Shown piece after piece: positions 3,570 through 36,789 of a stretch of DNA of 48,530 nt. Made by a program: the position numbers and the translations under genes. Within the stretch, counting starts at the first letter, position 1. Each line of letters starts with the position of its first letter. The stretch is from Alphaproteobacteria bacterium (GTDB lineage Bacteria; Pseudomonadota; Alphaproteobacteria; RF32; CAG-239). The stretch lies in the NCBI GenBank assembly GCA_045111335.1, contig JBGUGE010000038.1, positions 1 to 48,530 of the forward strand, read 5' to 3'. The notes beneath the pieces are model-generated. The model made no database searches and had not been told where the DNA came from. It saw only the letters and a list, made by a program, of their open reading frames with translations.

Positions 3570-3671
3570 ACGCTTTATAATTAACTGTTGTCTCAGTGCT
3601 TTTCATTGTATATATTAAATTGTTTATTTGAACAAAAACAACCATAAGAATATATAATCAAAGACACTGGT

Positions 3672-3704
3672 ACGTCAAAAACTGTCGTAATATACTCTTA
3701 TAAT
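3672..3704 (+). promoter_or_regulatory. WYL (DriD/PafBC-type) operator-promoter, copy 1
   Basis: ACGTCAAAAACTGTCGT-N10-TATAAT, near-identical to 12271-12303. Confidence 0.7.
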
Positions 3705-3725
3705 ATAACAAAACTTCGCTGTTCC

Positions 3726-3759
3726 AAATAAAAACAACATTTTGAGGTTGTTTTTATTT
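3726..3759. terminator. Bidirectional terminator-like hairpin
   Basis: AAATAAAAACAAC-N8-GTTGTTTTTATTT, perfect 13-bp stem. Confidence 0.55.
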
Positions 3760-3761
3760 TA

Positions 3762-3947
3762 CACACGCTTCTCCCGAATTATACCAAAAAAAGTAGTAAA
3801 AAATGGCAAAAATGTAACCCCCCTTTTTTGTACACTACAAATTTCTTGTGGGTAATTTTGTATGTTTTACACCTTTTAGGAGTATAAATCATTGATTTTA
3901 GAAGTTTTTACACTTCGCCACCAATTATACCATTTAAGATAGCATAA
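3762..3947 (+). repeat. 186-bp direct repeat of 35682-35867 (element-end module)
   Basis: Gap-free alignment at offset 31920; 11 mismatches counted by hand. Confidence 0.95.
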
Positions 3948-4013
3948 GCCTTGCGCTTTGTGATATTACTACCTAACTAAAATAATATAATTCTTATTAA
4001 TAAAGGAGAAAAA

Positions 4014-4475
4014 ATGGATTATAAAGAAATTATACCTTTTAAGGCGGTGCGCAAATTTGATGAAATGTGTTTGCATAATGAGTATTTGCATCAAAACAAA
4101 GATTTTCAACAGCAGATTTTATCTTGGGCGGCGGATACGCTTGCCGAAGCAAGAGAACACTGGGGTGATATTCATGCGACAACGATTGATGCAGTAATTA
4201 AAACACATCATAGAGAGAAAGCCCATAAAGGTGCTGTTGTTCGTGATAAAAAGTATGCGCAATTCAGAGAGAAATTCGCAGAAATTCAAAAAGAAAAATA
4301 TAAAGAAGCGATACAAGTCGGTATTAAGCTGACGGCAAACAGTTTTGTGGAATGGTTCTTAGCAAATAAAGCAAATGAAATGCAAATACCTTATGTGGAA
4401 CAGAATCAGAAAAATAAATTAAGACAGTTGGCACAACAAAATAATCGCGAATTTAAAAAGCTTTTGCTTGGCTAA
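4014..4475 (+). CDS. Hypothetical protein upstream of the effector (possible regulator or accessory factor)
   Basis: RBS AAGGAG; basic helical protein; C-terminal half paralogous to 10042-10302 (KLTANxFxxWFL...IPYxExN...LA..NNREFK). Confidence 0.8.
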   Translation: MDYKEIIPFKAVRKFDEMCLHNEYLHQNKDFQQQILSWAADTLAEAREHWGDIHATTIDAVIKTHHREKAHKGAVVRDKKYAQFREKFAEIQKEKYKEAIQVGIKLTANSFVEWFLANKANEMQIPYVEQNQKNKLRQLAQQNNREFKKLLLG

Positions 4476-4575
4476 AGTTACAATGTTAGCAAGCTATAGG
4501 GCATATACAAGCCGTTTTACTTCTGCTATAGTTTTAATCTGAATATAGACTTAAACTTTTTAACAGGAGATAAAA

Positions 4576-5676
4576 ATGGATATTTGGGATGAAATAAAAA
4601 AATTAACCGGATATCAATCCGGCAACGGCGGGGTGGATAGCTACGGGGTTGACCACAGCGGATTTTCAACCCGTGACGAGTTGGAATATCAAAGCGCGCG
4701 GTTGGCAAGAGAAAATCAACTGGCGGAAGGTTTTGCTAAGCAAGGAATTGCCGAAGAAAACTATCCGCAATACGGAACTAATTTTTGGGGTGGCTCGCCG
4801 GAAAACAACTATGGCTTCGGCACTTCAAACATCAAGCAAAATATCGAAAATGTAACAAATCGGCTTAATAACAACACAAATAACGGGCAGGTCTTTGCAA
4901 ACTCTGATTATACAGTCAACACCGAAAGCTTAGTCGGCAAACCAAGCAGTTATTTTCAAAATAATAGTGCAAGCAATACTTTGGGAGGCAATGCAAGTGG
5001 CGCACTGAATCAAAATGGTAGCGGTAACAGTATCAACTATGATAATTATGCAATGCGACAGGACTTAGAAAATAATATCAAACGAGAACAGGAAAGAGCG
5101 CAGCAACAAAGCTTAATACCTCCTTCTAACAATTCTCAGATAACGCCTATTCCTTCAGGAAAACCACTAACTTCGCAAGAAGCGTCCTATATGTTCACAC
5201 CGACACACCCTGATTATGGCCAAATAGGTTCATTGGAATTTGATGGGCAAAATTTGGTTTGGTTGCAAAATGGTCAACCGGTAAAGTATTATCCGGCACA
5301 ATCCGGTCATAATGATTATCAAAGCGCTAAATATACCAATGTCTCTAATGAGGGGCCAATACCGGAAGGAGATTATTTACTAGCACAAGGAAGCGGACAA
5401 GATTATAATAATTTGTCATGGCGAGAAAAAAATGGATTGTATAACGGAATAAGGTGGTTTGAATTGCCGGACGGTTGGGGAAAATCTCGTATTCCTATTC
5501 AACCATTACCTGATACCAACACTTTCGGGCGACATAGTATGTATGTGCACGGAGGTGCAGTTCCGGGTTCTGCCGGTTGTATTGATTTAACTTACAGAAA
5601 CGATGATTTCTATAACGACTGGCTAAAATATAACGGAAATCTTCCGCTTAAGGTAAAATACCCAAAAGGTTGGTAA
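4576..5676 (+). CDS. Polymorphic effector with C-terminal Tlde1/DUF2778 (L,D-transpeptidase-fold) domain
   Basis: RBS AGGAG; N/Q-rich linker; C-terminus LEFDG...AQSG...EGPIPEGDY...WG..RIPIQP...GRHSMYVHGGAVPGSAGCIDL with the HxG...SxGC catalytic motif. Confidence 0.8.
   Translation: MDIWDEIKKLTGYQSGNGGVDSYGVDHSGFSTRDELEYQSARLARENQLAEGFAKQGIAEENYPQYGTNFWGGSPENNYGFGTSNIKQNIENVTNRLNNNTNNGQVFANSDYTVNTESLVGKPSSYFQNNSASNTLGGNASGALNQNGSGNSINYDNYAMRQDLENNIKREQERAQQQSLIPPSNNSQITPIPSGKPLTSQEASYMFTPTHPDYGQIGSLEFDGQNLVWLQNGQPVKYYPAQSGHNDYQSAKYTNVSNEGPIPEGDYLLAQGSGQDYNNLSWREKNGLYNGIRWFELPDGWGKSRIPIQPLPDTNTFGRHSMYVHGGAVPGSAGCIDLTYRNDDFYNDWLKYNGNLPLKVKYPKGW
4918..4958 (+). repeat. Linker repeat L1 (41 bp identical to 6151-6191)
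   Basis: AACACCGAAAGCTTAGTCGGCAAACCAAGCAGTTATTTTCA in both places, same reading frame (NTESLVGKPSSYFQ). Confidence 0.95.
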
Positions 5677-5677
5677 C

Positions 5678-5710
5678 AAAAAGGGTAAGGAAAAATTTCC
5701 TTGCCTTTTT
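5678..5710 (+). terminator. Hairpin with overlapping putative -35 (TTGCCT); second copy at 9590-9618
   Basis: AAAAAGGGTAAGGAAA-aa-TTTCCTTGCCTTTTT; related AAAAGGCGAGGAAAATTTCCTTGCCTTTT at 9590. Confidence 0.6.
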
Positions 5711-5755
5711 TTGTTATTTTGATTTAATATATAAAGAATACAACCGGAGGTGACT

Positions 5756-6106
5756 ATGGAAAAAGTAATCAAAAAACATTTAAGTTATGTTCCTTATATT
5801 GTCTTTGCATTAATAACATTGTTATATGTTAGAATTATCGTATCATTATATCGTAGTATTGAAGCGGCAAGAGATGGCGGATTTGAAAAATTATTTGAAG
5901 CTGATTTTCCTATTTGGTATTATAAATCTGCAGATAATTTGATTTTGTATGATAAAATATTAATATTATTTTTTATTTTAATGTACTTTTTATCAGTATT
6001 TATCAGAAAGAAATATATTTTATCATTATTTATACTACTGTTACCCTTGATTTTTATGTTTTGTGATTGGTTATATTTAAGGTATACAATTACATATAAA
6101 TTATAA
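5756..6106 (+). CDS. Small membrane protein, candidate cognate immunity
   Basis: RBS GGAGG; about three hydrophobic segments; directly after the effector. Confidence 0.7.
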   Translation: MEKVIKKHLSYVPYIVFALITLLYVRIIVSLYRSIEAARDGGFEKLFEADFPIWYYKSADNLILYDKILILFFILMYFLSVFIRKKYILSLFILLLPLIFMFCDWLYLRYTITYKL

Positions 6107-6120
6107 CAAACAGCCCTCAG

Positions 6121-6921
6121 ATTCAGATAGAAACAGCTGATTACACGCTTAACACCGAAAGCTTAGTCGGCAAACCAAGCAGTTATTTTCAGAATAGTAA
6201 CACAACCAATACTTTGGGAACAAATCAGAGTTTTAATACAACGCCGGCAATACAAAATCAAACACCTGCACAATTACCGAATAATAATATTCAACAGTTG
6301 CGCATGCCGATGGGTTCTGAGCAACAAATAACCATGCCGAGTTATGAATTACAACAAAAAATACAACAGCCAAGTACTTGGGATAGAGTCAGAAATGCCG
6401 CCAATAATTTTGCGGATATTACTAAAACTGCAACAGTAGGTTACGCAGATGGGGCAACTTTAGGTAATTTTGATGAAGGTATGGGAGTAGCAACGGCGGC
6501 GGTTACATTTAATCCGAACAACTATTACCTTGGACGTGATGCCACGAGACAATTGCAAAAAGAACTGCAAGCAAAACATCCTTATGTTTACGGTGGTGCG
6601 GAATTCGTGGGAGCAATGACAACACCAATGCATTTGGTAAAAGGGGAAAATTTCAAACAGAAAGCGTTTAATGCCTTTACCGATACAATAAATGCTTCTG
6701 CCGGATATGCCGAAAATTGGAACGATTTTGGGACTAATCTGGCGGTAAACGGAATTGCTAATATAATTGGGTTAACTGCAGAACAATTGCCATTATGGAG
6801 AGCATCGGCAAGACCTCTTGTGAAGTTGGGTAAGAAATTTATCAAGCAAGGAATAAATTCTTCTGCTGACAAAGTTAAAAATATGTATTATAAGGAAGAA
6901 GATGAAGAAAAATACTATTAA
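6121..6921 (+). pseudogene. Orphan effector C-terminal cassette (no ATG or RBS; begins in linker L1)
   Basis: Frame open from 6100 without an upstream ATG; contains L1 and L2 then a distinct tip (GYADGATLGNFDEG...KHPYVYGGAEFVG...EEKYY). Confidence 0.7.
6280..6342 (+). repeat. Linker repeat L2 (second copy 10643-10705)
   Basis: NNNIQQLRMPMGSEQQITMPS versus NNSIPQLRMPAGSEQQITMPS; CAACAAATAACCATGCCGAGT identical. Confidence 0.9.
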
Positions 6922-6949
6922 GAATAAAACGTAACAAAGAGAGCAGAAT

Positions 6950-7294
6950 ATGGAAAAAGAGGATAAAAAAGAAATTATAAAAAATAATATTTTTAAGTGT
7001 ATCGATCTCATACTCAATTTATTAATTGCATTTGGAATCTTTATAATAATTGTATTTCATATAATTGGTCCTTTTTTTCCTATTCTGTTCTTATTCGATT
7101 TTTGTTTTGTAGTCGGGTATCCGCTGTTTTTGCGATATGTATTAAAAAAGAAATGGTTTGAGTGCACAAAGGATTACTATCTTAAAATAAAATATATTTT
7201 GCTTCCGTGGTTTATAATGGAACTCGTAGTATTGTTATATTATCACAAAGCAACATATTTTATAATTAAAACCGTTATGGAAAACAGCAACTGA
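6950..7294 (+). CDS. Membrane immunity-like protein, tandem copy 1
   Basis: 114 aa; PFFPxLFLFD...GYP...LKKxWFECTK...LLYYHKAT...MENSN shared with copies 2 and 3. Confidence 0.8.
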   Translation: MEKEDKKEIIKNNIFKCIDLILNLLIAFGIFIIIVFHIIGPFFPILFLFDFCFVVGYPLFLRYVLKKKWFECTKDYYLKIKYILLPWFIMELVVLLYYHKATYFIIKTVMENSN

Positions 7295-7370
7295 CAAACT
7301 GAAAAATATGTATTATGATGAAGACGAGGAAAAATATCACTATTAGCAAAACATAACAAAGGGACAGAAC

Positions 7371-7715
7371 ATGGGGAAAGAGGATATAATCAAAGAAATA
7401 AATGAGTTAACCTTAAAAACAATAAATGCTATTCTTTCTATATTCTATATATTTGGTTTATTTGCTATTTTAGCATTTCATAAAATAGTGCCTTTTTTCC
7501 CTGTTCTGTTCTTGTTTGATTTTTGTTTTATAATCGGATATCCTCTTTTTTTACACTATGTGTTAAAAAAGAAATGGTTTGAGTGCACAAAAAACTATTA
7601 TCTTAAAATACGATATATTTTATTGCCTTATGTTATGATGGAACTTATAGTGTTGTTATATTATCATAAGGCAACTCTTTTTATCATTAAAACTATTATG
7701 GAAAACAGCAACTGA
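7371..7715 (+). CDS. Membrane immunity-like protein, tandem copy 2
   Basis: 114 aa paralogue with a divergent N-terminal helix. Confidence 0.8.
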   Translation: MGKEDIIKEINELTLKTINAILSIFYIFGLFAILAFHKIVPFFPVLFLFDFCFIIGYPLFLHYVLKKKWFECTKNYYLKIRYILLPYVMMELIVLLYYHKATLFIIKTIMENSN

Positions 7716-7798
7716 CAAACTGAAAAATACATTTTATAATGAAGATGAGGACGAGAAAAAATATCATTATTAGTAAAAAATAACATAAGGAACAGAAT

Positions 7799-8143
7799 AT
7801 GGAAAAAGATAGTATAATTACTTTAATGAAGAAAAGTTTATTAAAAATTATATATTGGACGGCATCTTTACTGATTTTTCTCAGCGCAATGATTATTCTT
7901 CAACTGCATTTAATTGTGCCTTTTTTTCCTGTTCTGTTCTTATTTGATTCATGTTTCTGGTTCGGGTATCCTATGTTCGTCGAACATATTTTAAAAAAAC
8001 GATGGTTTGAGTGTACAAAAAACGATTATTTAGCATTAAAGTACATTTTATTACCTTGGTTAATAATGGAAATTATAGTGTTGTTATATTATCATAAGGC
8101 AACTCTTTTTATCATTAAAACTATTATGGAAAACAGCAACTGA
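7799..8143 (+). CDS. Membrane immunity-like protein, tandem copy 3
   Basis: 114 aa paralogue. Confidence 0.8.
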   Translation: MEKDSIITLMKKSLLKIIYWTASLLIFLSAMIILQLHLIVPFFPVLFLFDSCFWFGYPMFVEHILKKRWFECTKNDYLALKYILLPWLIMEIIVLLYYHKATLFIIKTIMENSN

Positions 8144-8226
8144 CAAAATGAAAAATATGTATTATAAGGACGATGAGGATGAAGAAAGATATTACTGAAA
8201 ATAAAACATAATAGAGGGAACAGAAT

Positions 8227-8575
8227 ATGGAAAAAGAGGTTATAATTCAAAAAATAAAAGGATTGTCACTAAAACTAATTAATAATTTTTTGGCCTTTTT
8301 TATATGTTTTTGGCTCATTATTATTATTTTAAGATTACACTTCATGGTGTCTTTTTTTCCTGTTCTTATTTGATTTTTGTTTACTGGTTGGGTATCCACT
8401 GTTTTTGAGATATGTTCTAAAACGAAAGTGGTTTGAATGCACGAAAGATGATTACCTTTGCATAAAATACATTATGCTTCCATTGTTAATTATGGAATTA
8501 GTCGTTCTGTTCTGCTATCCTCAAGAGACAATTTTTGCAATTGACTTTTTAGCAGAAAGTGATTTCTTTAAATAA
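8227..8575 (+). pseudogene. Membrane immunity-like protein, tandem copy 4 (frameshifted)
   Basis: MEKEVII...FFPVL, then a 5-nt deletion (CCTGTTCTGTTCTT to CCTGTTCTT); the shifted frame continues LFDFCLLVGYPLFLRYVLKRKWFECTK...DFFK*. Confidence 0.85.
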
Positions 8576-8746
8576 GCCATATATGCGTTTTATGACCAAT
8601 TTGAAGCAAAATGTTAAACAATGTAAGGAATCCGCACAAAGTTTAACATTTTTTTGTTTGGGGTATTTTTTCTAATAACCCTGAAGAATGTGAAGAACTG
8701 TTGCCCGAGCAATATCGAAAAAAGAAAAGATATTGGTAAAAATTCA

Positions 8747-8782
8747 GAGCCGATTGACAATCGGCTCCTTTTATTATAGTAT
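8747..8782 (+). promoter_or_regulatory. Terminator hairpin containing a sigma70 promoter
   Basis: GAGCCGATTGACAATCGGCTC hairpin plus T tract; TTGACA(8754)-17 bp-TAGTAT(8777). Confidence 0.65.
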
Positions 8783-8816
8783 GAATAAAATTTAAAATAA
8801 AACCATAGGTAGCAAA

Positions 8817-9329
8817 ATGAAAAAGATAGAAAAATCAAAACTCATCAAAACCATTCTGTTGTTAATTTCAACAATTCCTTTCCCTTTGTTTTTCGCTATT
8901 CTTTTATATGTTGTTCCGGCTTTATATGTAAGTTTTATCGTTCCTTATTTAATCTGGAAAATTTGGTTTGGTAAAGATAGTAAGAAAATAAAAAAAATTA
9001 CTCTGACTTGGAAATTGCCGATTATAATTTTCTTGGCATGGGCAATGTTTGAAATAGAAATGTTGTTGATTTTTCTTGTTCCGTTCACGTTATCATTTAT
9101 TTGGAAACTAATTCTCTTCTTTATTTCACTATTACTGTTCCGGTGCATAACCTATGCAATGATGATTTTTATATTGCAATACGATATTTTGGTGCCATAT
9201 CGAAAATTAATATATGCTTTTATATTGGCTTATTGTATTGCCGTTGCAGATTTCTGGTATTTATCTCTAAATGCACCGGATACAGATGACTACAGCATTT
9301 CGTTTTATGAATATATGTCGTCAGAATAG
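8817..9329 (+). CDS. Multi-pass membrane protein, orphan immunity candidate
   Basis: 170 aa, about five hydrophobic segments, AT-rich. Confidence 0.7.
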   Translation: MKKIEKSKLIKTILLLISTIPFPLFFAILLYVVPALYVSFIVPYLIWKIWFGKDSKKIKKITLTWKLPIIIFLAWAMFEIEMLLIFLVPFTLSFIWKLILFFISLLLFRCITYAMMIFILQYDILVPYRKLIYAFILAYCIAVADFWYLSLNAPDTDDYSISFYEYMSSE

Positions 9330-9368
9330 GAAGATTTATTGGCAGTAAATATCCGGAGGAAGATTGTG

Positions 9369-9581
9369 ATGAGCTTGTTCAAAGATATATTAAAAAGAAT
9401 TGGTAAATACATTGGGTATGTGCTACTTTTTATTTGTTTTTCAACAATTACAGGTGTTGTTGCCGGAATTACTTGGTATGCATTGACTGAACATAGTTAT
9501 AAAGAGTGCGATAACCAGTTTATATATGGTTGTATGTCTGCAGGACTTAGTGAAGAAGCCTGCAAAAGTAGAGTGTATTGA
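9369..9581 (+). CDS. Small membrane protein with Cys-rich tail, orphan immunity candidate
   Basis: RBS GGAGGA before ATG 9369; one TM segment, then C-x6-C-x9-C. Confidence 0.6.
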   Translation: MSLFKDILKRIGKYIGYVLLFICFSTITGVVAGITWYALTEHSYKECDNQFIYGCMSAGLSEEACKSRVY

Positions 9582-9667
9582 TAATAAACAAAAGGCGAGG
9601 AAAATTTCCTTGCCTTTTATTTTTGTTGATATACTATCATAATGGTTACAACCTTTAGGATAACAAC

Positions 9668-10012
9668 ATGTTTCAAGACAAGGTAAAGCAAGCGATATCA
9701 GATACTTTCAAACTCTTGTGGTCGTTCAAATGGTATGTTGGATTGTATCTGCTGTATTATATTATAAGTATTATATCATTATTTGATATACCGACAGCAG
9801 ATGATAAAATATTCCATGCAGAAGCAACTTCGCAAATCTGGTCATATACTAATCAAGAGGTTTATATCGGCAGTCTAAGGTTAGAAATTATAATACTGAG
9901 TTTACTTTTTCTGTTGGGGACGAGTAATATGCGTAATCACCCGAAGATAGCAAAATTTATTTTTATTCTACCATGGATTTATGCAACAATTCGTTTGATA
10001 AAACTTTTTTAA
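9668..10012 (+). CDS. Membrane protein, orphan immunity candidate
   Basis: RBS AGGA; three hydrophobic segments; preceded by the same hairpin as 5756. Confidence 0.7.
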   Translation: MFQDKVKQAISDTFKLLWSFKWYVGLYLLYYIISIISLFDIPTADDKIFHAEATSQIWSYTNQEVYIGSLRLEIIILSLLFLLGTSNMRNHPKIAKFIFILPWIYATIRLIKLF

Positions 10013-10110
10013 AGGTATCCGGTTTCGCCTTTGATATATGATTGCCGGGTATATGGCACGTTTCGGAAGATTTTTGCAAGTGTAGCGAAATTATATCGCA
10101 AGTCCAAAGA
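10008..10110 (+). repeat. Right-end repeat family (copies at 10008, about 11560 and 36429)
   Basis: TTTAAAGGTATCCGGTTTCGCCTTTG (26 bp) identical at 10008 and 36429; GTATATGGCACGTTT; TAGCGAAATTATATCG present in all three copies. Confidence 0.85.
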
Positions 10111-10302
10111 GAAAAGTTTGATGAAGCATTAAAAGCTGGTAATAAATTAACGGCTAACGGATTTGCTCATTGGTTTTTAAAGAATAGAGAAAATGATATG
10201 AAAATACCTTATGAGGAAGGTAATAAACTGCATAAACTTATACGTTTGGCAGAGGCAAATAATCGAGAGTTTAAAACACCCATAGAATGCAAAGGCGGAT
10301 AG
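10042..10302 (+). pseudogene. 5'-truncated paralogue of 4014-4475 fused to the repeat
   Basis: QREKFDEALKAGNKLTANGFAHWFL...NNREFK aligns to the C-terminal half of 4014-4475. Confidence 0.75.
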
Positions 10303-10387
10303 TTGCAAACTATACGGGATTGTCAAAGTTTTTCTTATAGATAAAGTAAAACTGTAAATTTCTAATTTTAGCTGAAAGGAAGAAACA

Positions 10388-11068
10388 ATGACGGAATTTA
10401 TAAGAGAATTGATGTTTGGTAAACATCCGGTGCACCGAACAAATCCCAAACCCGGACAAAGCGAATGGTACTATTTGGACCCGCGCGGAACAGATAGATT
10501 TGCTGATATGAAGGAAATCGATGTACCGAATGAGAATTAGCCAAATCCATATGCTAACGAAATACAAAACTATCTGTATGAAAATGACGAGTATAACTAT
10601 AAACAACTTTATGGTAATACTCCACCACCGGTACAAACGCAGAATAATAGTATTCCGCAATTACGCATGCCTGCGGGTTCTGAACAACAAATAACCATGC
10701 CGAGTAATAATTTGCAAAAATACAACAACAATTTTGCAAATTTTGTAAGCAATACTTATGACAACGTAAATAATGCTTATAATAGTGTTAAGCAAGATTA
10801 TTTCGGACAACGAAATTATCAGAATAGGTATAAACAAGGTTGTACGCCTTCTAATATCGCATATAATACAATATCTAATTATCAAATTTCTCCTAACCAG
10901 AAATTGGTAGAAAATGGTAATATAGTTTCAAATTATATTATGAAAAAGGTTTTATCTGCAATACCTGTAGTGGGTACGTATGTAAATGGAATTGTAGCCG
11001 GAGATAAAGTAGCTAATGGATTAACTAATATCTACAATGCTATGGATGAGGCTGATTGTTTTAAATAA
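10388..11068 (+). pseudogene. Second full-length-type effector interrupted by one in-frame TAG (10538-10540)
   Basis: RBS AAGGA and ATG 10388 in frame with track ORF 10667-11068: MTEFIRELMFG...VPNEN*PNPYANE...L2...IPVVGTYVNGIVAG. Confidence 0.75.
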
Positions 11069-11124
11069 AACTTGATTCTAACAAACAATCTGCATATAGT
11101 AAATCTAAATAAAGGGGATAACAA

Positions 11125-11523
11125 ATGAATGAAAAAACAAAAGAAATATGCATATTAGGTGGTTTATATTTTGTGATTAGCTATATCATTGATTTGGTGG
11201 GCGGTTTTGCAAGCAATCTATCAACGATTTTTTTTATTTTGTTTGTTATCCTCTTTTTTATGATTTTATTTGGCAAGAAAGTTGCCTTTCTGCAAAAATT
11301 TACGGATAAGTTTCCCAAGTTCTCGGTGTATTTATATTATATTGGATTTATAGGATATATTTTACTTGTTTTTAATTTATTGGTTTTAGGTCCGACGGAA
11401 TTTATTTCTTTGAGTGAAGTTATGCAAAAATATATTGCATGGGGTGTTGCCACTATAAATATCATCGGAGTCTTGTTGGCGTTAATTTTAGCAACTCGTA
11501 ATGTATTTTTTAAGAAAAAGTGA
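11125..11523 (+). CDS. Four-TM membrane protein, candidate cognate immunity
   Basis: RBS AAGGGG; own promoter TTGATT(11072)-17-TATAGT(11095). Confidence 0.75.
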   Translation: MNEKTKEICILGGLYFVISYIIDLVGGFASNLSTIFFILFVILFFMILFGKKVAFLQKFTDKFPKFSVYLYYIGFIGYILLVFNLLVLGPTEFISLSEVMQKYIAWGVATINIIGVLLALILATRNVFFKKK

Positions 11524-11833
11524 AAATAGCACGAAAGGATCTGAAATGCCTAAGTTCGGAAGTAAATTGATTAATGTAGCGAAATTATATCGTAATTTCA
11601 AAGCATTAGAAAGAGAGTTATTTCCCGCTATCATTTCAGGCGTTTTAGTACAAACAAGGCTGATTTCAAAATTGATGAAATATTTTAAGGCGACGAGATT
11701 GTCCTTCGCAAACACTTTTATGTTTGCTCACGACCTACGGCGCTCATCGGCTAATCGCCGACCGGCATACTTAAAGTCTGCCTTTCGCTTGTAGCCGAAC
11801 ACGCTTCTCCGTGTTCGAACCGGCGCCCTAAAA

Positions 11834-11877
11834 CAAATAAAAAAGTACCACCTAAAAAGGTGGTACTTTTTTATTTG
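11834..11877. terminator. Perfect 20-bp-stem hairpin adjoining a tRNA-Pro 3' fragment
   Basis: CAAATAAAAAAGTACCACCT-aaaa-AGGTGGTACTTTTTTATTTG. Confidence 0.8.
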
Positions 11878-11894
11878 GTCGGGGCGACGAGATT
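11875..11894 (-). repeat. Duplicated 3' end of tRNA-Pro (att-like)
   Basis: TTGGTCGGGGCGACGAGATT identical to 36712-36731; shorter pieces at 11689 (GGCGACGAGATTG) and 12136 (TGGTCG). Confidence 0.9.
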
Positions 11895-12091
11895 GGCTTG
11901 ATTTTTTGTGAAAAATCTGCGCCGCTTCGTCGGCTATCAGCTAACGCTGACCGGCGTTCTCTCGCCCGCCGGCGCCTCCTTGTGTCCCTCGCTACGCTCA
12001 CGACATCTTAACCGGCTCGCACAAATACGCTCGCCGACTGCGATTCCGAACCCGCTCTTCGCGTGTTCATATCTGATTGCTCGCAATCTAC

Positions 12092-12134
12092 AAACGCAAA
12101 AAAGCCACCCGAAATGAGTGGCTTTTTTGTGTTT
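12092..12134. terminator. Long hairpin before a TGGTCG tRNA-end remnant
   Basis: AAACGCAAAAAAGCCAC-N9-GTGGCTTTTTTGTGTTT. Confidence 0.7.
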
Positions 12135-12270
12135 ATGGTCGTGTATATGGCACGTTTTTAAGGAAAGCCCCGGTTCCGAGCTCCCTTGGTCATAAAATGC
12201 GAACTCCCAGTCCGCTTGGTGTTTTTGAAAGAAAGCAACTATAAGTACTTGTATAGTCAACATGCCTAAC

Positions 12271-12303
12271 ACGTCAAAAACTGTCGCAATTTGCTCTTAT
12301 AAT
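12271..12303 (+). promoter_or_regulatory. WYL operator-promoter, copy 2 (points at the DnaB-like gene)
   Basis: ACGTCAAAAACTGTCGC-N10-TATAAT. Confidence 0.7.
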
Positions 12304-12343
12304 ATAACCATTTTGAACCAATTGTTTATTATGGGAGCAGAAA

Positions 12344-13306
12344 ATGACTGAGAATACCGTTGAGAATAATTTATCGGAAATTTTAAACGACTATCTGCAT
12401 GAACTTGATTTTAGGGTTCAACATCCCGATGCATTGATGGGAATTGCGACCGGATTTGACAACCTTGATAAGAGATTGGACGGTTTGTGCAATGGTGAGG
12501 TTATTTTAATCGGTGGTCGCCCGGCGATGGGGAAAACGGCTTTGGCCGCCAATTTGACTTATAATATTGCCGCCGGTTTTTATCTCAAACATCAGCAAAA
12601 TCCGTTAGATGATAAATGCGTTGTATATATCGGCTTGGAGCTTTCGCCGAAATTGTTTGCCAACAGGCTTCTTTCTTTACAGACAGCAATACCGACGTAT
12701 AAATTACGTTGTGGTGAGGATTTGGGAGAAAATTTTGATAAGATTTGCAAAGCCGAACGCACTTTTAGGGAATTACCGATTTATTATCTGGGCGATATAT
12801 TTGAGGTCGATGACATTGAAAAAGAGTTACAAAAGGTAGAAAAACAGGTCGGTTGCGTGATTATCGACTATCTGCAACTCTTGGGAGAGGAATATCAGAC
12901 AAAAGAAGATTACAGCTTAATCGTGTTACAACTTAAATCATTGGCTGTTAAACTCGGCATACCGATTGTGGTGCTTTCGCAGTTGAAACGTGAGTTGGAA
13001 AGCCGAGCCGATAAACACCCGCTTATGAGTGATATTCGCGGGATTATGCGCAATCAAAACGCGGCTGATAATGTCATATTTTTGTATCGCGAAAGCTTTT
13101 ATATTCAATTTGCGGAGCCAAGAACACGCAAGAAAGAATCCGATGATCAATATCAAAAACGTGTGCGGCAGTGGCAAAAACGTTGCGACGAAACAGAAAA
13201 CATTTGTGAAATTATCATCGCCCGCAATTCCGGTGGCTTTTGCGGCATAATTAAACTGCATTTTGATTGGGCCACCGGACTGTTTTGGGAGGAGAAAAGA
13301 GAATGA
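12344..13306 (+). CDS. DnaB-like helicase C-terminal domain protein (no N-terminal domain, degenerate motifs)
   Basis: TGFDNLD, Walker A GRPAMGKT, IIDYLQL, LSQLKR; SDLRESGSIEQDAD reads SDIRGIMRNQNAAD and KxRxG reads RNSGG. Confidence 0.85.
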   Translation: MTENTVENNLSEILNDYLHELDFRVQHPDALMGIATGFDNLDKRLDGLCNGEVILIGGRPAMGKTALAANLTYNIAAGFYLKHQQNPLDDKCVVYIGLELSPKLFANRLLSLQTAIPTYKLRCGEDLGENFDKICKAERTFRELPIYYLGDIFEVDDIEKELQKVEKQVGCVIIDYLQLLGEEYQTKEDYSLIVLQLKSLAVKLGIPIVVLSQLKRELESRADKHPLMSDIRGIMRNQNAADNVIFLYRESFYIQFAEPRTRKKESDDQYQKRVRQWQKRCDETENICEIIIARNSGGFCGIIKLHFDWATGLFWEEKRE

Positions 13307-32594: not shown

Positions 32595-33371
32595 TTAAAT
32601 ATATATGCCTTGATCAACCAATCGGTGTAAGGCAAAATGCCAACCGCCCAGTTTTTTGCCTTTCTGGTTACACCAATCGGTTCGCTCGTAGTGCTCAAAG
32701 AAATGATCCAGGTCAATATCCATATTGTTATTTTTAACATACAATTCCACTTCCGATCGATCCGGAGGGAATTGTTTAAAGTGGTATTTTAGTGGCGGAG
32801 GTTCCATTTGCCGAGCAAAAATAGCCCCTAAGCTCACAAAACCACCATTGTCCGGATCCGAAAAATTTCGCCTGCGCGTATAATTTTCTTTCCTTTTAAA
32901 ATTATTCCCTGGTTTATTTTCTTTAGTCGTGAGCGCCTGCAGTTCGGGTTCCGGGCTTATGTCGGGCTCAGGTCGGGCGTTGTCCTTATGACGACGCGTT
33001 CGAAACCGCTGATATTTCAAATAGTTAGACATTGAAATAAGTAGGGCGTTACCGAGGCGCATCGTCTTCACTTCGCCGATATTTTTCAGTTTAGTCAGCA
33101 AGCGCTTGACCTCGTCGCGTGATTTGTGCAAATCTTCGCCTATATGCGCGTAACTGGTGACGTATTCGCCGGGGTTAATCGTGCGTGTACCCCAAAAGCG
33201 CGTTTTATAATTGGCACGCATTAGCAGATAGATCATCATTTTCAGCGCCGCATCATCGTGAAACAGCGGCCAATTCACAAATTCCCGATCAATAGTAATA
33301 AAGCCATACTCAGACGGGATTGTATCCGGAAACGCCAAGCGTCCAGATTTATTCTGGTTTTCTGTTGTCAT
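32595..33371 (-). CDS. Phage-type replication initiator (wHTH N-terminus)
   Basis: GFITIDR...W...IYLLMRAN...GEYVTS...LLTKLKNIGEV; C-terminal FPPDRSEVELY...FFEHYERTDW...W. Confidence 0.75.
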   Translation of the reverse strand: MTTENQNKSGRLAFPDTIPSEYGFITIDREFVNWPLFHDDAALKMMIYLLMRANYKTRFWGTRTINPGEYVTSYAHIGEDLHKSRDEVKRLLTKLKNIGEVKTMRLGNALLISMSNYLKYQRFRTRRHKDNARPEPDISPEPELQALTTKENKPGNNFKRKENYTRRRNFSDPDNGGFVSLGAIFARQMEPPPLKYHFKQFPPDRSEVELYVKNNNMDIDLDHFFEHYERTDWCNQKGKKLGGWHFALHRLVDQGIYI

Positions 33372-33389: not shown

Positions 33390-35105
33390 TTATTCTTGGC
33401 GAAAGCCGAACATTTTGCGCTGTTCGTTCCAATCCACCGGAATTGTGTTGCGAATCAGGTCTTTAAGTGTTAAATCACGCGGTTGTAGACCGGCCAGAAT
33501 ACTCTCGACGATATCCGGCGCCAGGCAGGTCAGGCGAATGATTTTGCCCATATAACTGCGGTCCATCTGCTCGAGTTGTGCCAGTTCCTGAATATTTAAA
33601 TTGCCGCGTTCCAATTTATGTTGCCAGCCGAACGCCCGCACCAGGGCCACAATCATCTGCTTATCCTGATGCCGTTCTTCCGCCTCATTGCCGACATAAA
33701 TCTCGGTTTGTTGCCGGCGCTTCAAAAACGTTATGTTTTCGGTGGTTTCATAAGCGGTGGTGTCCGGATTATAAATCCAGATTTTATCATCAAGCAGGCT
33801 CTTTTGCACCAGCTCGTTCAGCCAAGGCTTGAGCTGAATTTTGATTTTATCCGGCCAAATCGTTATCCGCGAAATTGCCAGATTAAACAGCTGTTGCCGA
33901 GTTTCCGCGCCCAAAGCATTAATAAATTTGTTGCCTTGCACCACCTTAATCACGTCATATTCGCTTTTATCCGGCACGCGCTTTGTAACTTCATTGGAGA
34001 GCGAGTGAACGACCAGAGGGTCGGTCAACAAATCTTTGAGCTTGTTTATAACGTAATTTTCGAGTGCCAGCGCCGGCACCGATTTCACTTCGCAAAAGCG
34101 GTAACTCTTTTTAATCGCCTTGAGGGAAGTATAGTAATAATACTCCCGGCCGCGTTTAACCGCCTTGGTCGGCACCATCGCATAGCCGCAACACCCGCAA
34201 AATAAAAGACCTTTAAGTGTTTTGAACTCAAAGGTCTTGTTGATTGGTCCTTTTTCGGAAACCGGTTTGTCTTTCAGTTTATGCACCTTATCCCATAGGG
34301 CTTGCGAGATAATCGCCTCATGCTGTCCGTCGTAGAGCTCACCCTTATAAAAGATTTTGCCCAAGTAGATCCGGTTATCCAAAATCCGGTACAAATGGGC
34401 GCGGTCAAACTGCTTGCCGCCGACAACTTTGCCTTTTTTGGTAACCTTGCTTTTGGTGCGATAACCGTTGGAATTGAGCCAATCTGCCAGATATTGCGGC
34501 GATTTGCACACGGTGTATTTTTCAAACAACAGCCGCACCAACGCCGCTTCTTTAGGGTTGATGACCAGCTTTTTATCCTGCAAATCATAGCCGAGCGGCA
34601 ACGGTCCGCCCATCCACATGCCTTTCTTTTTTGAGGCCGAGATTTTATCACGGATCCGCTCGCCGCTGACTTCGCGCTCAAATTGCGCAAACGACAGCAA
34701 CACGTTCAAGGTCAGCCGGCCCATCGAATCATAGGTGTTGAAGTTCTGCGTGACCGAAACAAACGACACGTTATATTCGTCGAATAACTCGACCATCTTG
34801 GAAAAATCGGTTAGCGAACGGGTTAATCGGTCGATTTTATAGACCACAATCATATCAACTTTGCCGGCCCGGATATCTTCAAACAAGCGCTTGAGTGCCG
34901 GTCGATTCATATTGCCGCCGGAATAACCGCCGTCATCATAATGTTCCGCCAGCGCTTCCCAGCCTTGATGCACCTGCGACTTAACATAATTCAGTCCGGC
35001 TTCGCGTTGCGCCTCCAAGGTGTTAAACTCTTTTTCCAGTCCTTCGTCCGTCGATTTGCGCGTATAAATGGCGCATTTGATACTCTTTATAATATCTTCG
35101 CTCAT
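33390..35105 (-). CDS. Large serine recombinase (integrase) with C-terminal HTH extension
   Basis: AIYTRKST, DDGGYSG..RPAL, YKIDRLTRS, FAQFERE; recombinase domain YLG..GQHEAII; LFCGCCG; LAPDIVESILAG. Confidence 0.95.
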   Translation of the reverse strand: MSEDIIKSIKCAIYTRKSTDEGLEKEFNTLEAQREAGLNYVKSQVHQGWEALAEHYDDGGYSGGNMNRPALKRLFEDIRAGKVDMIVVYKIDRLTRSLTDFSKMVELFDEYNVSFVSVTQNFNTYDSMGRLTLNVLLSFAQFEREVSGERIRDKISASKKKGMWMGGPLPLGYDLQDKKLVINPKEAALVRLLFEKYTVCKSPQYLADWLNSNGYRTKSKVTKKGKVVGGKQFDRAHLYRILDNRIYLGKIFYKGELYDGQHEAIISQALWDKVHKLKDKPVSEKGPINKTFEFKTLKGLLFCGCCGYAMVPTKAVKRGREYYYYTSLKAIKKSYRFCEVKSVPALALENYVINKLKDLLTDPLVVHSLSNEVTKRVPDKSEYDVIKVVQGNKFINALGAETRQQLFNLAISRITIWPDKIKIQLKPWLNELVQKSLLDDKIWIYNPDTTAYETTENITFLKRRQQTEIYVGNEAEERHQDKQMIVALVRAFGWQHKLERGNLNIQELAQLEQMDRSYMGKIIRLTCLAPDIVESILAGLQPRDLTLKDLIRNTIPVDWNEQRKMFGFRQE

Positions 35106-35106
35106 G

Positions 35107-35526
35107 TTAACCTCTCTTTTCCGATAGTCCGAAAAAACTGTAACCCGAACAATGGCGACCGGTAATCTCCCGTGCCACCGCCGTCAGAGTCTTATAAATT
35201 TTGCCGTTGTATTCAATTTGCGACGCACCTTTAATGCGCACGCGATGCTCCACACCGTTATGGATTTTTACCAAAATCGTGCCGACACTCGGCAAGCGCT
35301 CATCTTTGATAAAAATCGGATTTCGGTATTCTTTCGAATTAAACATTTTAACCAGCATATTTTTTGTTTCCGGTTTCAAACCGCCGTATTTCAATTCCTG
35401 TAGCCTGTATCCGATACGGGATACGAAAAAAGCCTTACTGTTTGAACAATAAGGCTTATCAAAGTAGTCCAACCACATTTTCTGTAAATCTTTTAACGGA
35501 TAGTCCTCTAAATTTTTCCAATTCAT
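35107..35526 (-). CDS. DUF2924 family protein
   Basis: YRLQELKYGGL...GTILVK.HNG.EHRV...YNGKIYKTLTAVAREITGRHCSGYSFFGL; usual upstream partner of these recombinases. Confidence 0.9.
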   Translation of the reverse strand: MNWKNLEDYPLKDLQKMWLDYFDKPYCSNSKAFFVSRIGYRLQELKYGGLKPETKNMLVKMFNSKEYRNPIFIKDERLPSVGTILVKIHNGVEHRVRIKGASQIEYNGKIYKTLTAVAREITGRHCSGYSFFGLSEKRG

Positions 35527-35648
35527 GGCATTCCTTTCTGTTGAACAATGAATGCTTGCTTTTCGGTAGAAGTCCAGTAGTTTTTTGAAAAACAGGCACA
35601 AAAAAAGCCCTCGGAATTTTACTTCCGAAGGCCGGTTAAAGTAGTCCG

Positions 35649-36310
35649 TTTAAAACGCAAAAACGTGCGAAATTTGGTTTGCACACGTTTCTCCCGAATT
35701 ATACCAAAAAAAGTAGTAAAAAATGGCAAAAATGTAAACCCCCTTTTTTGTAGTGTACAAATTTCTTGTGGATAATTTTGTATGTTTTACACCTTTTAAG
35801 AGTATAAATCATTGATTTTAGAAGTTTTCACACTTCGCCACCGATTATACCGTTCAAGATAGCATAAAGCGGCAAAAATGTCGCGAACTATTTTGTCGCG
35901 ACAAATTTTATGTTAAAACTTCCGGGTATTTAAAACGCAAAAAACGTGCGGAACCTGATCCTCACACGTTTCTCCCGAACTATACCAAAAAAAGTAGCAA
36001 AAAACGGCAAAAATGTTAACTACTTTTTTGTTAAGAACATATTTCTTGTGGACAGTTATGTATGTTCTAGGCGTATTTAAAACATAACACATTGATTCTT
36101 ATTATTTTTCTCTGCCGATTATATCAGAAAAGCTAACATAAAATAATCAAAATGTCTTGTACTTTTATGTCCTGACAATTTTTTTGTTACATTTACGAAA
36201 AAAACGTGTGGAATTAGTTTCGCACACGCTTCTCCCGAATTATATCAAGAAAAGTAACATAAAACGCTTGCATTGTCACGGTCTAATATGTCAATGACAA
36301 ATTAGACAGG
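35649..36310 (-). repeat. Three-unit array (periods 281 and 260 bp) of promoter-hairpin modules
   Basis: AAACGTGYG-N12-CACACGYTTCTCCCGAAYTATAYC at 35661, 35942 and 36202; units 1-2 also share IHF-like AATCAA-N4-TTA, and all share TGTC..GACA motifs. Confidence 0.85.
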
Positions 36311-36676
36311 GATAACTTTTTGTCATTTGCTCTTTTAAGGGTGCAAAATAAACACGAATTATGTTATTGCATTATTGCTGTTTTTATATCTTTCTGGGTA
36401 GTATTTTTCTGTGTCTCGCAATTATCAATTTAAAGGTATCCGGTTTCGCCTTTGGGATATGTTTCCCCAGTATATGGCACGTTTTGGAACAAAAATCGAG
36501 ATATAGCGAAATTATATCGCAAATTCAAAGAATTAAGAAGAGAGTGATTTTCCACTACCGTTTCAGGCGTTTTAGTACAAACAAGGAATTTTTCATAAAA
36601 AAGCGTATAGATACGCGACCAGACCATTTTATAAATTTTTGCAAACATGCCGCAAAATCTGGGCTTTAATGGCATA

Positions 36677-36712: not shown

Positions 36713-36789
36713 TGGTCGGGGCGACGAGATTCGAACACGCGACATCTTGGTCCCAAACCAAGCGCTCTACCAGGCTGAGCTACACCCCG
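36713..36789 (-). tRNA. tRNA-Pro (TGG)
   Basis: CGGGGTGTAGCTCAGCCTGGTAGAGCGCTTGGTTTGGGACCAAGATGTCGCGTGTTCGAATCTCGTCGCCCCGACCA; cloverleaf with CCA end. Confidence 0.97.

Follow-up and report, generated by a model that had tools for sequence, protein, structure and literature searches.

In lambdoid phages transcription from the constitutive promoter PR′ is ended by an intrinsic terminator, tR′, a short RNA (6S or StxS RNA) is the default by-product, and Q antitermination, in which polymerase is altered while at the promoter, opens the genes downstream (PMC7547250). This arrangement, a promoter with a terminator just downstream, is the closest working model for the locus described here: an array of five promoter units and three hairpins at 35649-36310 on the minus strand of a 48,530-nt contig from an uncultured rumen alphaproteobacterium (GTDB lineage RF32; CAG-239; GenBank assembly GCA_045111335.1, contig JBGUGE010000038.1). 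This contig, number 38 of a genome of 1.63 Mb and 43.6% GC, is called the window below. The array differs from PR′-tR′ in several respects. The phage terminator lies 194-258 nt downstream, as against about 35 nt in the array; the array has three terminating units and two hairpin-less tandem promoters; and the genes beyond it form a recombinase/replication operon and are not late genes. The array also showed neither a Q-like gene nor a sigma-dependent pause element: GGGAGAAACGTGTG, the presumed first stretch of the transcript, contains no -10-like hexamer, and no antiterminator family was seen among the open reading frames (ORFs) scanned.

The gene transfer agent (GTA) cluster of Caulobacter offers a second comparison. 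As described in PMC11150451, its promoters have poor -35 elements and need the upstream-bound activator GafY together with integration host factor (IHF), and GafZ bypasses a terminator made of tandem repeats. The likeness lies in a phage-derived alphaproteobacterial element, promoters with poor -35 elements, and tandem direct repeats with inverted repeats as terminator. Unlike the array units, the GTA repeats are 150 bp long and GC-rich, follow the first gene and do not carry promoters. The island scans, none of which was aimed at GafY or GafZ, showed no homologue of either. Because no antiterminator was found, the array is not assignable to either control family. Literature on DUF2924, on GafZ and anti-termination and on promoter-proximal phage terminators, supplements excluded, yielded analogues and no description of the array.

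We hold, with about even confidence, that the array consists of tandem promoter-proximal terminator modules and forms the control region of a mobile defence island. If so, it would be a compact, repeated promoter-plus-terminator switch by which a defence island that spreads horizontally silences its recombinase and replication genes, and uncultured rumen bacteria would supply an alphaproteobacterial case for the few elements listed so far as being under promoter-proximal termination. It would also point to a read-through or activating factor, and would mean that arrays of "constant stem, variable loop" near recombinases need not be guide or integration systems.

Promoter units and hairpins of the array

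The array is made up of five paralogous promoter units, A to E, spaced 121-146 bp apart, and is followed by a second terminator:

36198-36247, minus strand: module A, with TGATATAAT, TCGGGAG, a hairpin (AAGCGTGTG / CGAAACTAATTC / CACACGTTT) and a U tract; predicted fold -15.8 kcal/mol, z -3.87
36060-36180, minus strand: unit B, a paralogous promoter with its -10 at 36123-36118, without a hairpin of its own
35939-35987, minus strand: module C, with TGGTATAGT, TCGGGAG, a hairpin (AAACGTGTG / AGGATCAGGTTC / CGCACGTTT) and a U tract; predicted fold -15.9 kcal/mol, z -3.42
35740-35900, minus strand: unit D, a paralogous promoter with its -10 at 35849-35844, without a hairpin of its own; contains AATCAATGATTTA and TTATCCACA
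35659-35706, minus strand: module E, the final module ahead of the operon, with TGGTATAAT, TCGGGAG, a hairpin (AAACGTGTG / CAAACCAAATTT / CGCACGTTT) and a U tract; predicted fold -14.4 kcal/mol, z -2.80
35606-35633, minus strand: the second terminator, canonical and intrinsic, which separates module E from the start codon of DUF2924; called by the terminator scan and kept in relatives

Read on the minus strand, units A, C and E run from an extended -10 through TCGGGAG into a 9-bp stem with a 12-nt centre, and end in 5-7 T. In unit A, TGATATAAT (36247-36239) is followed by TCGGGAG (36238-36232), the arm AAGCGTGTG (36231-36223), the centre CGAAACTAATTC (36222-36211) and the arm CACACGTTT (36210-36202), and the T run ends at 36198. 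The corresponding -10 elements and centres are TGGTATAGT (35987-35979) and AGGATCAGGTTC (35962-35951) in unit C, and TGGTATAAT (35706-35698) and CAAACCAAATTT (35681-35670) in unit E. Units B and D share the upstream part and are promoter only. A preliminary description of the window, made from its letters, had picked out units A, C and E with their -10 elements, TCGGGAG, arms and loops, and all were recovered on the minus strand as described; B and D are additions to it. The arrangement is non-random: the core TCGGGAGAARCGTGTG occurs four times in the window against 0.05 expected, a count that none of 100 shuffles reached.

TGATATAAT, TGGTATAGT and TGGTATAAT each match the sigma-70 extended -10 (TGnTATAAT). 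Twenty-nine nucleotides upstream of every -10 stands an invariant ACA, the end of a short TGTN..NACA palindrome, followed by TTTTTGCC; the TGTC-N2/3-GACA palindromes of the preliminary description are likewise present. Its DnaA box, TGTGGATAA, lies at 35767-35775 in unit D, the position of the DnaA-box-like TTATCCACA. IHF-consensus matches occur as it had reported, without being enriched (8 in the window against 6.0 expected, with 27 of 100 shuffles reaching 8), and the three in or near the array are copies of one paralogous motif. Small ORFs in units B and D were considered as genes and rejected; they have no ribosome-binding site, the copy at 3762 is frame-shifted by an extra G, and they were treated as non-coding.

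Conservation and pairing of the stem

Conservation and pairing were assessed in an alignment of 22 distinct full modules. Pairwise identity was 0.95 across the eight positions of the extended -10, in which the G of TG is invariant, 0.99 for TCGGGAG and 0.91 for the arms, and fell to 0.68 in the centre and 0.66 in the 3′ flank. Of the 197 cells of the 9-bp stem, only 3 are non-pairs and 21 are G.U or U.G; read from the opposite strand, these 21 would be A.C mismatches. One module carries a compensatory change from A-U to G-C in the stem. All 22 have three A before the stem and 5-7 T after it, which puts the U tract on the 3′ side only and therefore points to a one-directional terminator design.

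Pairing continues into the centre. Its positions 2 and 12 (pair 56-66) are G-C in 11 modules, A-U in 5, G.U in 4 and unpaired in 2, positions 4 and 10 are A-U in all, and 93.3% of the 285 aligned pair cells are paired. The real structure is therefore most probably a bulged hairpin of 11-13 bp with a loop of 3-5 nt; the 12-nt loop described earlier exists as a centre, part of which is paired. Predicted folds of A, C and E range from -14.4 to -15.9 kcal/mol (z -2.8 to -3.9). The modules thus combine the hallmarks of an intrinsic terminator, a stable sense-strand hairpin and, on that strand only, a U tract directly after the stem.

A different hairpin in a second island family

A second island family, inserted at tRNA-Met, was found in four genomes (G023, G014, G074, G075). 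Its genes are ordered DUF2924, serine recombinase, DUF6291, DUF6362, an array of five promoters and a 162-aa helix-turn-helix (HTH) protein, with Gabija-like and type I restriction-modification (R-M) cargo. The promoters are homologous to those of the window, with the same palindrome, spacing, -10 and CGGGAG. The last of them leads directly into a hairpin of unrelated sequence, GGGAGGTT/AACCTCCC, followed by T5; after it come the motif CGGACTAC, as in the family of the window, and a strong second terminator before the next gene. It is the design (promoter, immediate terminator hairpin, second terminator) that is conserved and not any particular palindrome, and the different hairpin at the same position is, in our view, the best evidence that these structures may act as promoter-proximal intrinsic terminators. 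A prophage identity for this second family was considered and dropped, its gene content being that of a DUF2924/recombinase/DUF6291/DUF6362 island at tRNA-Met.

Distribution among relatives

The array is narrowly distributed among relatives. Its region was matched in 10 of 36 other genus genomes drawn and in none of 24 from other families. True modules occur in 10 of 50 genus genomes and gave the 22 distinct full modules aligned above, with further ones in metagenome contigs; 9 of 11 metagenome stretches contain additional modules and the other 2 are chance matches. The motif "-10 + (T)CGGGAG" gave 32 matches in 14 of the 50 genus genomes, against 2 for the reversed control, and in the window's own genome is confined to this contig. 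A scan of IMG/VR with the 16-nt core returned 24 stretches, all chance matches without promoter or hairpin context, and a "distant" blastn search of the phage collection with the 1.2-kb region as query returned no match.

Arrays carry from 1 to 4 hairpin modules, a number that varies even among close relatives, and module order varies between genomes; the copy number fits unequal crossing-over in the roughly 40 bp of conserved core. Species whose map/RadC region is only about 72% identical share island DNA at 87-94% identity, from which it follows that the island moves between species. Cargo on the same strand follows the modules in three settings: the recombinase operon, an R-M pair (G069) and an unrelated gene (G072). 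The type II pair of G069 (L021 1725-3682), which encodes a methylase of 251 aa and an enzyme of 263 aa, has the first hairpin module on one side and the next promoter unit on the other and is on the strand of the promoters. In G072 (L054 6585-6941) a single leader, module and second terminator stand without DUF2924 or recombinase in another island, between a reverse-transcriptase gene on one side and a small secreted-protein gene with type III R-M genes on the other.

A possible control region

We propose that each module is a very small transcription unit. Its promoter would be of the sigma-70 type and dependent on the extended -10, with no recognisable -35, and transcription would start within the invariant TCGGGAG and run directly into an intrinsic terminator, in which, as predicted, the 9-bp stem is topped by a 1-nt bulge, another 2-4 pairs and an apical loop of 3-5 nt, and is followed by 5-7 U. 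Initiation at A, C or E would by default yield RNAs about 33-36 nt long, and polymerase from B or D would stop at the next hairpin (that of module C for B) with an RNA of about 180 nt. On sequence evidence, the tiny hairpin RNA ending in a U tract that had been proposed earlier would most likely be this default product; the guide and recombination functions proposed along with it are not supported, as set out below. Together, the five promoters, three hairpins and canonical terminator would form the control region of the DUF2924/serine recombinase/DnaD-like initiator operon, a termination barrier that keeps the operon nearly silent until a factor encoded by the element or a helper activates the promoters or makes polymerase resistant to termination. 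Its point of action might be the TGTC..GACA sites, which lie 29 nt before each -10, or the invariant TCGGGAG. The units would have multiplied through duplication and unequal crossing-over.

Four RNA runs were compared, all as assembled contigs, in which uncovered stretches are not evidence of silence. In one of them, a bovine gut metatranscriptome, three contigs of 89-137 nt from a relative provide the sole cover of a 1.4-kb stretch, at 35647-35829, a span that begins close to the unit D promoter and ends a little beyond hairpin E; the contig end at 35647 lies 12 nt beyond the T run. This weak hint fits a discrete RNA of about 180 nt ending at the hairpin, from contigs that have neither ends nor strand and could be DNA. 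Two other runs (pig, sheep) covered coding parts only or gave nothing informative.

Several observations weigh against tandem terminators as the function of the array. Covariation is thin, with only 2 of 13 pairs changing on both sides; its score exceeded 499 of 500 column shuffles, which for modules related to each other is supporting evidence and not proof, and the share of cells paired is not exceptional, since 33 of 500 shuffles were as high. Termination some 35 nt from the start would be unusually close. A simple promoter scan did not call the module promoters, because they have no recognisable -35, and the terminator scan did not call the module hairpins, because their loops exceed 8 nt. 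No Q-, N- or NusG-like family was seen among the island ORFs scanned, and no antiterminator or activator was identified. Modules A and C are kept upstream even though their products would never reach a gene, DnaA-box-like and IHF-like motifs in units beside replication genes fit an origin, and the RNA runs, being contigs, carry no information on start, end or strand and may contain DNA.

The tRNA-Pro defence island

The array stands at the head of the recombinase/replication operon. In minus-strand order, the genes and elements around it are map (methionine aminopeptidase), RadC, tRNA-Pro, a conserved leader, the array, the second terminator, DUF2924, the large serine recombinase and the DnaD-like initiator:

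36713-36789, minus strand: tRNA-Pro(TGG), whose last 19 nt (36713-36731) are repeated at 11876-11894
36424-36585, minus strand: conserved leader block that travels with the array, present also in genomes where the array does not adjoin the tRNA
35107-35526, minus strand: DUF2924 protein, 139 aa (Pfam PF11149, E 8.4e-32)
33390-35105, minus strand: large serine recombinase, 571 aa, with Resolvase, Recombinase and Zn ribbon domains
32595-33371, minus strand: DnaD-like helicase loader or replication initiator, 258 aa (PHROGs 2514 and 186, E 1e-12 to 1e-13)
11876-11894, minus strand: distal 19-bp direct repeat of the tRNA-Pro 3′ end, bounding a 24,818-bp island at 11895-36712

The island has a GC content of 0.379 against 0.43 in its flanks, and in genomes without it a homologue of window positions 11895-12150 directly follows the tRNA. 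These bounds and the position of the operon place the array inside a tRNA-Pro defence island, where it heads the recombinase/replication operon. A DnaB-like helicase gene lies at 12344-13306 within the island. Two reports (PMC10299305, PMC11342252) place DUF2924 beside a serine recombinase in Wolbachia phage WO regions and describe a partial match to the RAMA DNA-binding domain. Two ORFs in the leader, 36361-36669 (plus strand) and 36430-36675 (minus strand), were rejected as genes because they match no family and have implausible sequences.

An interrupted copy outside the island

An incomplete copy of the last two units lies beyond the distal end of the island:

3762-3947, minus strand: partial second copy of units D and E (94% identity over 190 nt, window positions 3758-3947), ending after the 5′ arm of the hairpin
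3706-3761, minus strand: the initial 56 nt of a dispersed repeat (about 150 nt in full) that interrupts the hairpin and has a terminator-like hairpin of its own

The preliminary description had noted a fourth copy at 3762 breaking off at the loop, and the copy indeed stops after the 5′ arm. The 56 nt that follow are 100% identical to the start of a segment of about 170 nt in G001, G018 and two metagenome contigs, where it splits the last hairpin exactly, with the 5′ arm on one side and the centre and 3′ arm on the other; the left junction is also present in G022. Matches to the repeat itself at E up to 1e-12 were obtained in 25 of the 50 genus genomes, many of which have several copies. It is found in tandem in G011 (C17 57793-58254) and G066 (C30), inside tRNA genes, where a duplicated 5′ part of the tRNA flanks it, and within the tRNA-Pro remnant of G069, G017, G070 and G016. 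It consists of a terminator-like hairpin, AAAAACAACC..GTTGTTTTT, followed by a GCGAAG-rich stretch; further copies lie at C30:95-204 and C91:4041-4148 and on C34 and C14 of the window's own genome, and elsewhere at L142-L147 and L150. It looks like a miniature mobile or cis-mobilisable element.

Because the interrupting segment is a dispersed repeat that has also inserted elsewhere, the break at 3762 is one old insertion into a hairpin, inherited with island DNA, and not a recombinase crossover. The E-type and F-type promoter contexts of the junction are explained by one unequal crossover in the identical promoter core. The broken copy marks the far end of a low-GC block (3706-11875), an ORF of which is homologous to one beside module promoters in G005, G018 and G022. 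An arrangement of 5′ arm, repeat, and centre with 3′ arm had resembled two element ends, and the hairpin was considered as an attachment (att) site of the island; this candidate was rejected because the intervening 150 nt or so are the dispersed, sometimes tandem, repeat. The promoter region of the island's DnaB-like gene (12290-12343) has a paralogue at 3650-3705, directly beyond the point at 3705 where the repeat is truncated.

The earlier suggestion that recombination sites had been stacked by repeated integration is not borne out. The island ends are the 19-bp tRNA-Pro repeats (36713-36731 and 11876-11894) with the array internal to them, the single hairpin break is an insertion of the dispersed repeat, and the 1-4 copies per array fit unequal crossing-over. 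Element ends at the site, with hybrid half-sites at both junctions, would mark attP/attB of a large serine recombinase and were not found here. An attP site resembles the array in placing an imperfect inverted repeat near the recombinase gene; it differs in that the array has several copies, its symmetry centre is not the breakpoint and the island ends at tRNA-Pro repeats. Integron attC sites also share features with the modules, being hairpins with conserved stems and variable centres beside a recombinase, and one relative (G069) has an R-M pair between modules. The differences are that the enzyme here is a serine and not a tyrosine recombinase, with no IntI, that each array unit has a promoter and a U tract, that the units are gene-less except in G069, and that breakpoints do not recur at a fixed stem position.

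The variable centres

The preliminary description had offered variable guide or decoy loops as one explanation of the modules. The centres are point variants of a single consensus (about AGSATYARATTY) with three invariant positions. At the 9 loci with an intact DUF2924 gene, identity of the last-module centre (12 sites only) averaged 0.74; third codon positions gave 0.82, the non-coding flank 0.90 and the first two codon positions 0.97. Centre divergence thus proceeds at about the neutral rate and seems indistinguishable from neutral drift. Complementary targets were not convincing either. In the window's own genome the centres of A and C have no additional exact match, and that of E has three exact 12-nt matches in unrelated contexts, with no extension into the stems; allowing one mismatch, the E centre gave 18 matches against a shuffled mean of 8.25, about twice as many. 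With divergence near neutral (0.74 against 0.82; 0.68 against 0.66 for the 3′ flank) and no convincing complement, guide or decoy loops are not supported, and we conclude that the variable centre is probably the unconstrained top of a terminator hairpin.

The same description had held that the array is not a clustered regularly interspaced short palindromic repeat (CRISPR) locus, and we agree. The genus has CRISPR repeats of 36 nt that do not resemble the hairpin, and array units are spaced 134-281 nt apart with a promoter each, unlike a CRISPR array or an anti-CRISPR repeat mimic. A crude scan of the window's own genome showed no CRISPR-like array. At gathering score, Rfam identified only tRNA-Pro in the window; the best sub-threshold hits (E 0.19-5) fell far below gathering scores. 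Cas1 is present in 16 of 50 genus genomes but in only 1 of 10 module carriers (G027), the genomes being too few and too closely related for a statistical comparison.

Alternative explanations

The array might instead serve replication. Phage T7 has a primary origin in which short transcripts from tandem promoters prime DNA synthesis, and the array likewise has tandem strong promoters in AT-rich DNA (GC 0.326 against 0.436 for the genome) beside replication genes; its promoters are of host type, however, each has a terminator of its own, and there is no evidence of priming. As an oriV of the island, the array would supply DnaA-box-like and IHF-like sites through its B and D units, and transcriptional activation or primer RNAs for the DnaD-like initiator and DnaB-like helicase through its modules. 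It abuts the DnaD/O-like initiator gene, the helicase is encoded within the island, and the array of the second family directly follows the DUF6291 and DUF6362 genes, which in turn follow the recombinase. TTATCCACA and AATCAAYG are each kept in 9 of 13 aligned B/D-type units, which retain sequence blocks (AATCAAYG, TTATCCACAAGAAA) and have no predicted consensus RNA pairs, suggesting sites that act at the DNA level. What an origin leaves unexplained is the absence of iterons at helical spacing, the imperfect DnaA-box match in other units (CTGTCCACA, TTACCCACA), an IHF motif no commoner in the window than chance and a G072 module with no replication genes nearby; it accounts for the strand-specific G.U pattern and U tract no better than termination does. 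An origin function, alone or alongside a transcriptional one, is a real possibility; that the array is an oriV we regard as unlikely. Somewhat less credible still are autonomous, trans-acting hairpin RNAs of about 35 nt, either decoys that titrate an RNA-binding protein of phage or defence origin, or antisense regulators with apical specificity. Self-contained promoter-to-terminator units kept in 1-4 copies, an apical region that is the sole variable part of near-identical orthologous modules, and the upstream position of A and C, which if they terminate cannot contribute to operon expression, would all suit such RNAs, and terminated phage leader RNAs can act in trans, StxS being an example (PMC7547250). 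Yet the centres diverge almost neutrally, A and C have no exact complement elsewhere and E only three contextless 12-nt matches, the hairpin resembles neither the 36-nt CRISPR repeats of the genus nor any Rfam family, and the wholly different hairpin of the second island family means that no particular RNA sequence is conserved. In its broader form, a hairpin RNA gene family of serine-recombinase defence islands, whose products of about 35 nt would be decoys or regulators among island, helper phage and host, or replication-origin primers, with specificity set by fast-changing apical bases, the proposal strikes us as equally doubtful.

The stem could also be read as double-stranded DNA. Crossover sites of serine recombinases have a geometry like 9-bp half-sites with a 12-bp AT-rich centre, and attP sites often lie upstream of recombinase genes. 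AAACGTGYG-N12-CRCACGTTT could thus be a site for DUF2924 or the serine recombinase, either a dimer operator or roadblock at about +8 to +38 or a crossover site, a proposal to which we give little weight. The recombinase operon begins 135 bp downstream of hairpin E, and AAACGTGYS occurs nine times in the window, six times as hairpin arms and three times within the 16-mer AAAACGTGCCATATAC (36485, 12158, 10064). A partial match of DUF2924 to the RAMA DNA-binding domain has been reported (PMC11342252). Half-site changes are asymmetric and compatible with RNA, however (21 G.U cells against 3 non-pairs), the U tract is on one side only, and the island is bounded by tRNA-Pro repeats and not by hairpins. 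The sole hairpin breakpoint falls at the boundary of arm and centre, off the dyad axis, and reflects the insertion of a repeat found elsewhere; G005, L101 and L102 have lost part of the recombinase gene and keep their promoter-hairpin modules intact. Least probable of all, in our view, are decaying, functionless duplicates of one promoter-terminator, amplified by slippage or unequal crossing-over and now drifting. One to four copies among close relatives and an eroded recombinase in some carriers would fit decay, but the promoter, TCGGGAG and stems, at 0.91-0.99 identity, are much better conserved than third codon positions in the gene that follows (0.82), and are therefore under purifying selection. 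Tandem promoter-proximal termination remains the reading that we prefer.

Other sequences of the island and its surroundings

The motif GGTCTGGTCGCGTATCTAT is common to both island families, about 90-145 nt after their different tRNAs (36607-36625 in the window, about 19207-19225 of L138 in G074). The window copy contains a perfect palindrome, GCGTAT-CT-ATACGC (36603-36616), a candidate recombinase or end site. The three copies of the 16-mer AAAACGTGCCATATAC are on the minus strand at 36470-36485, 12143-12158 and 10049-10064. Those at 36485 and 10064 lie within duplicated leader blocks; the one at 12158 is at the inner edge of the tRNA-Pro remnant, beside ACGACCA.

Cargo of the island (11895-36712) includes three GmrSD-type genes, a FokI-like enzyme with a C5 methylase, an AbiEii/AAA protein, Fic-HTH and WYL, as well as genes for a Y-family polymerase, an exonuclease, and RNase T-like, ankyrin, MIF/tautomerase-like and low-molecular-weight (LMW) phosphatase proteins. 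In the low-GC block at 3706-11875, ORF 4014-4475, divergent from the distal promoter copy, was considered as a regulator candidate; it matched no Pfam or PHROG family, and its best atlas matches (score 0.88) are unnamed. The block, of 32.7% GC, also contains a partial 12-bp tRNA-Pro repeat (11689-11700), a putative effector resembling Tlde1/YkuD (4576-5676) and four ORFs that are each exactly 114 aa long (6950-7294, 7371-7715, 7799-8143, 9668-10012) and may be immunity genes.

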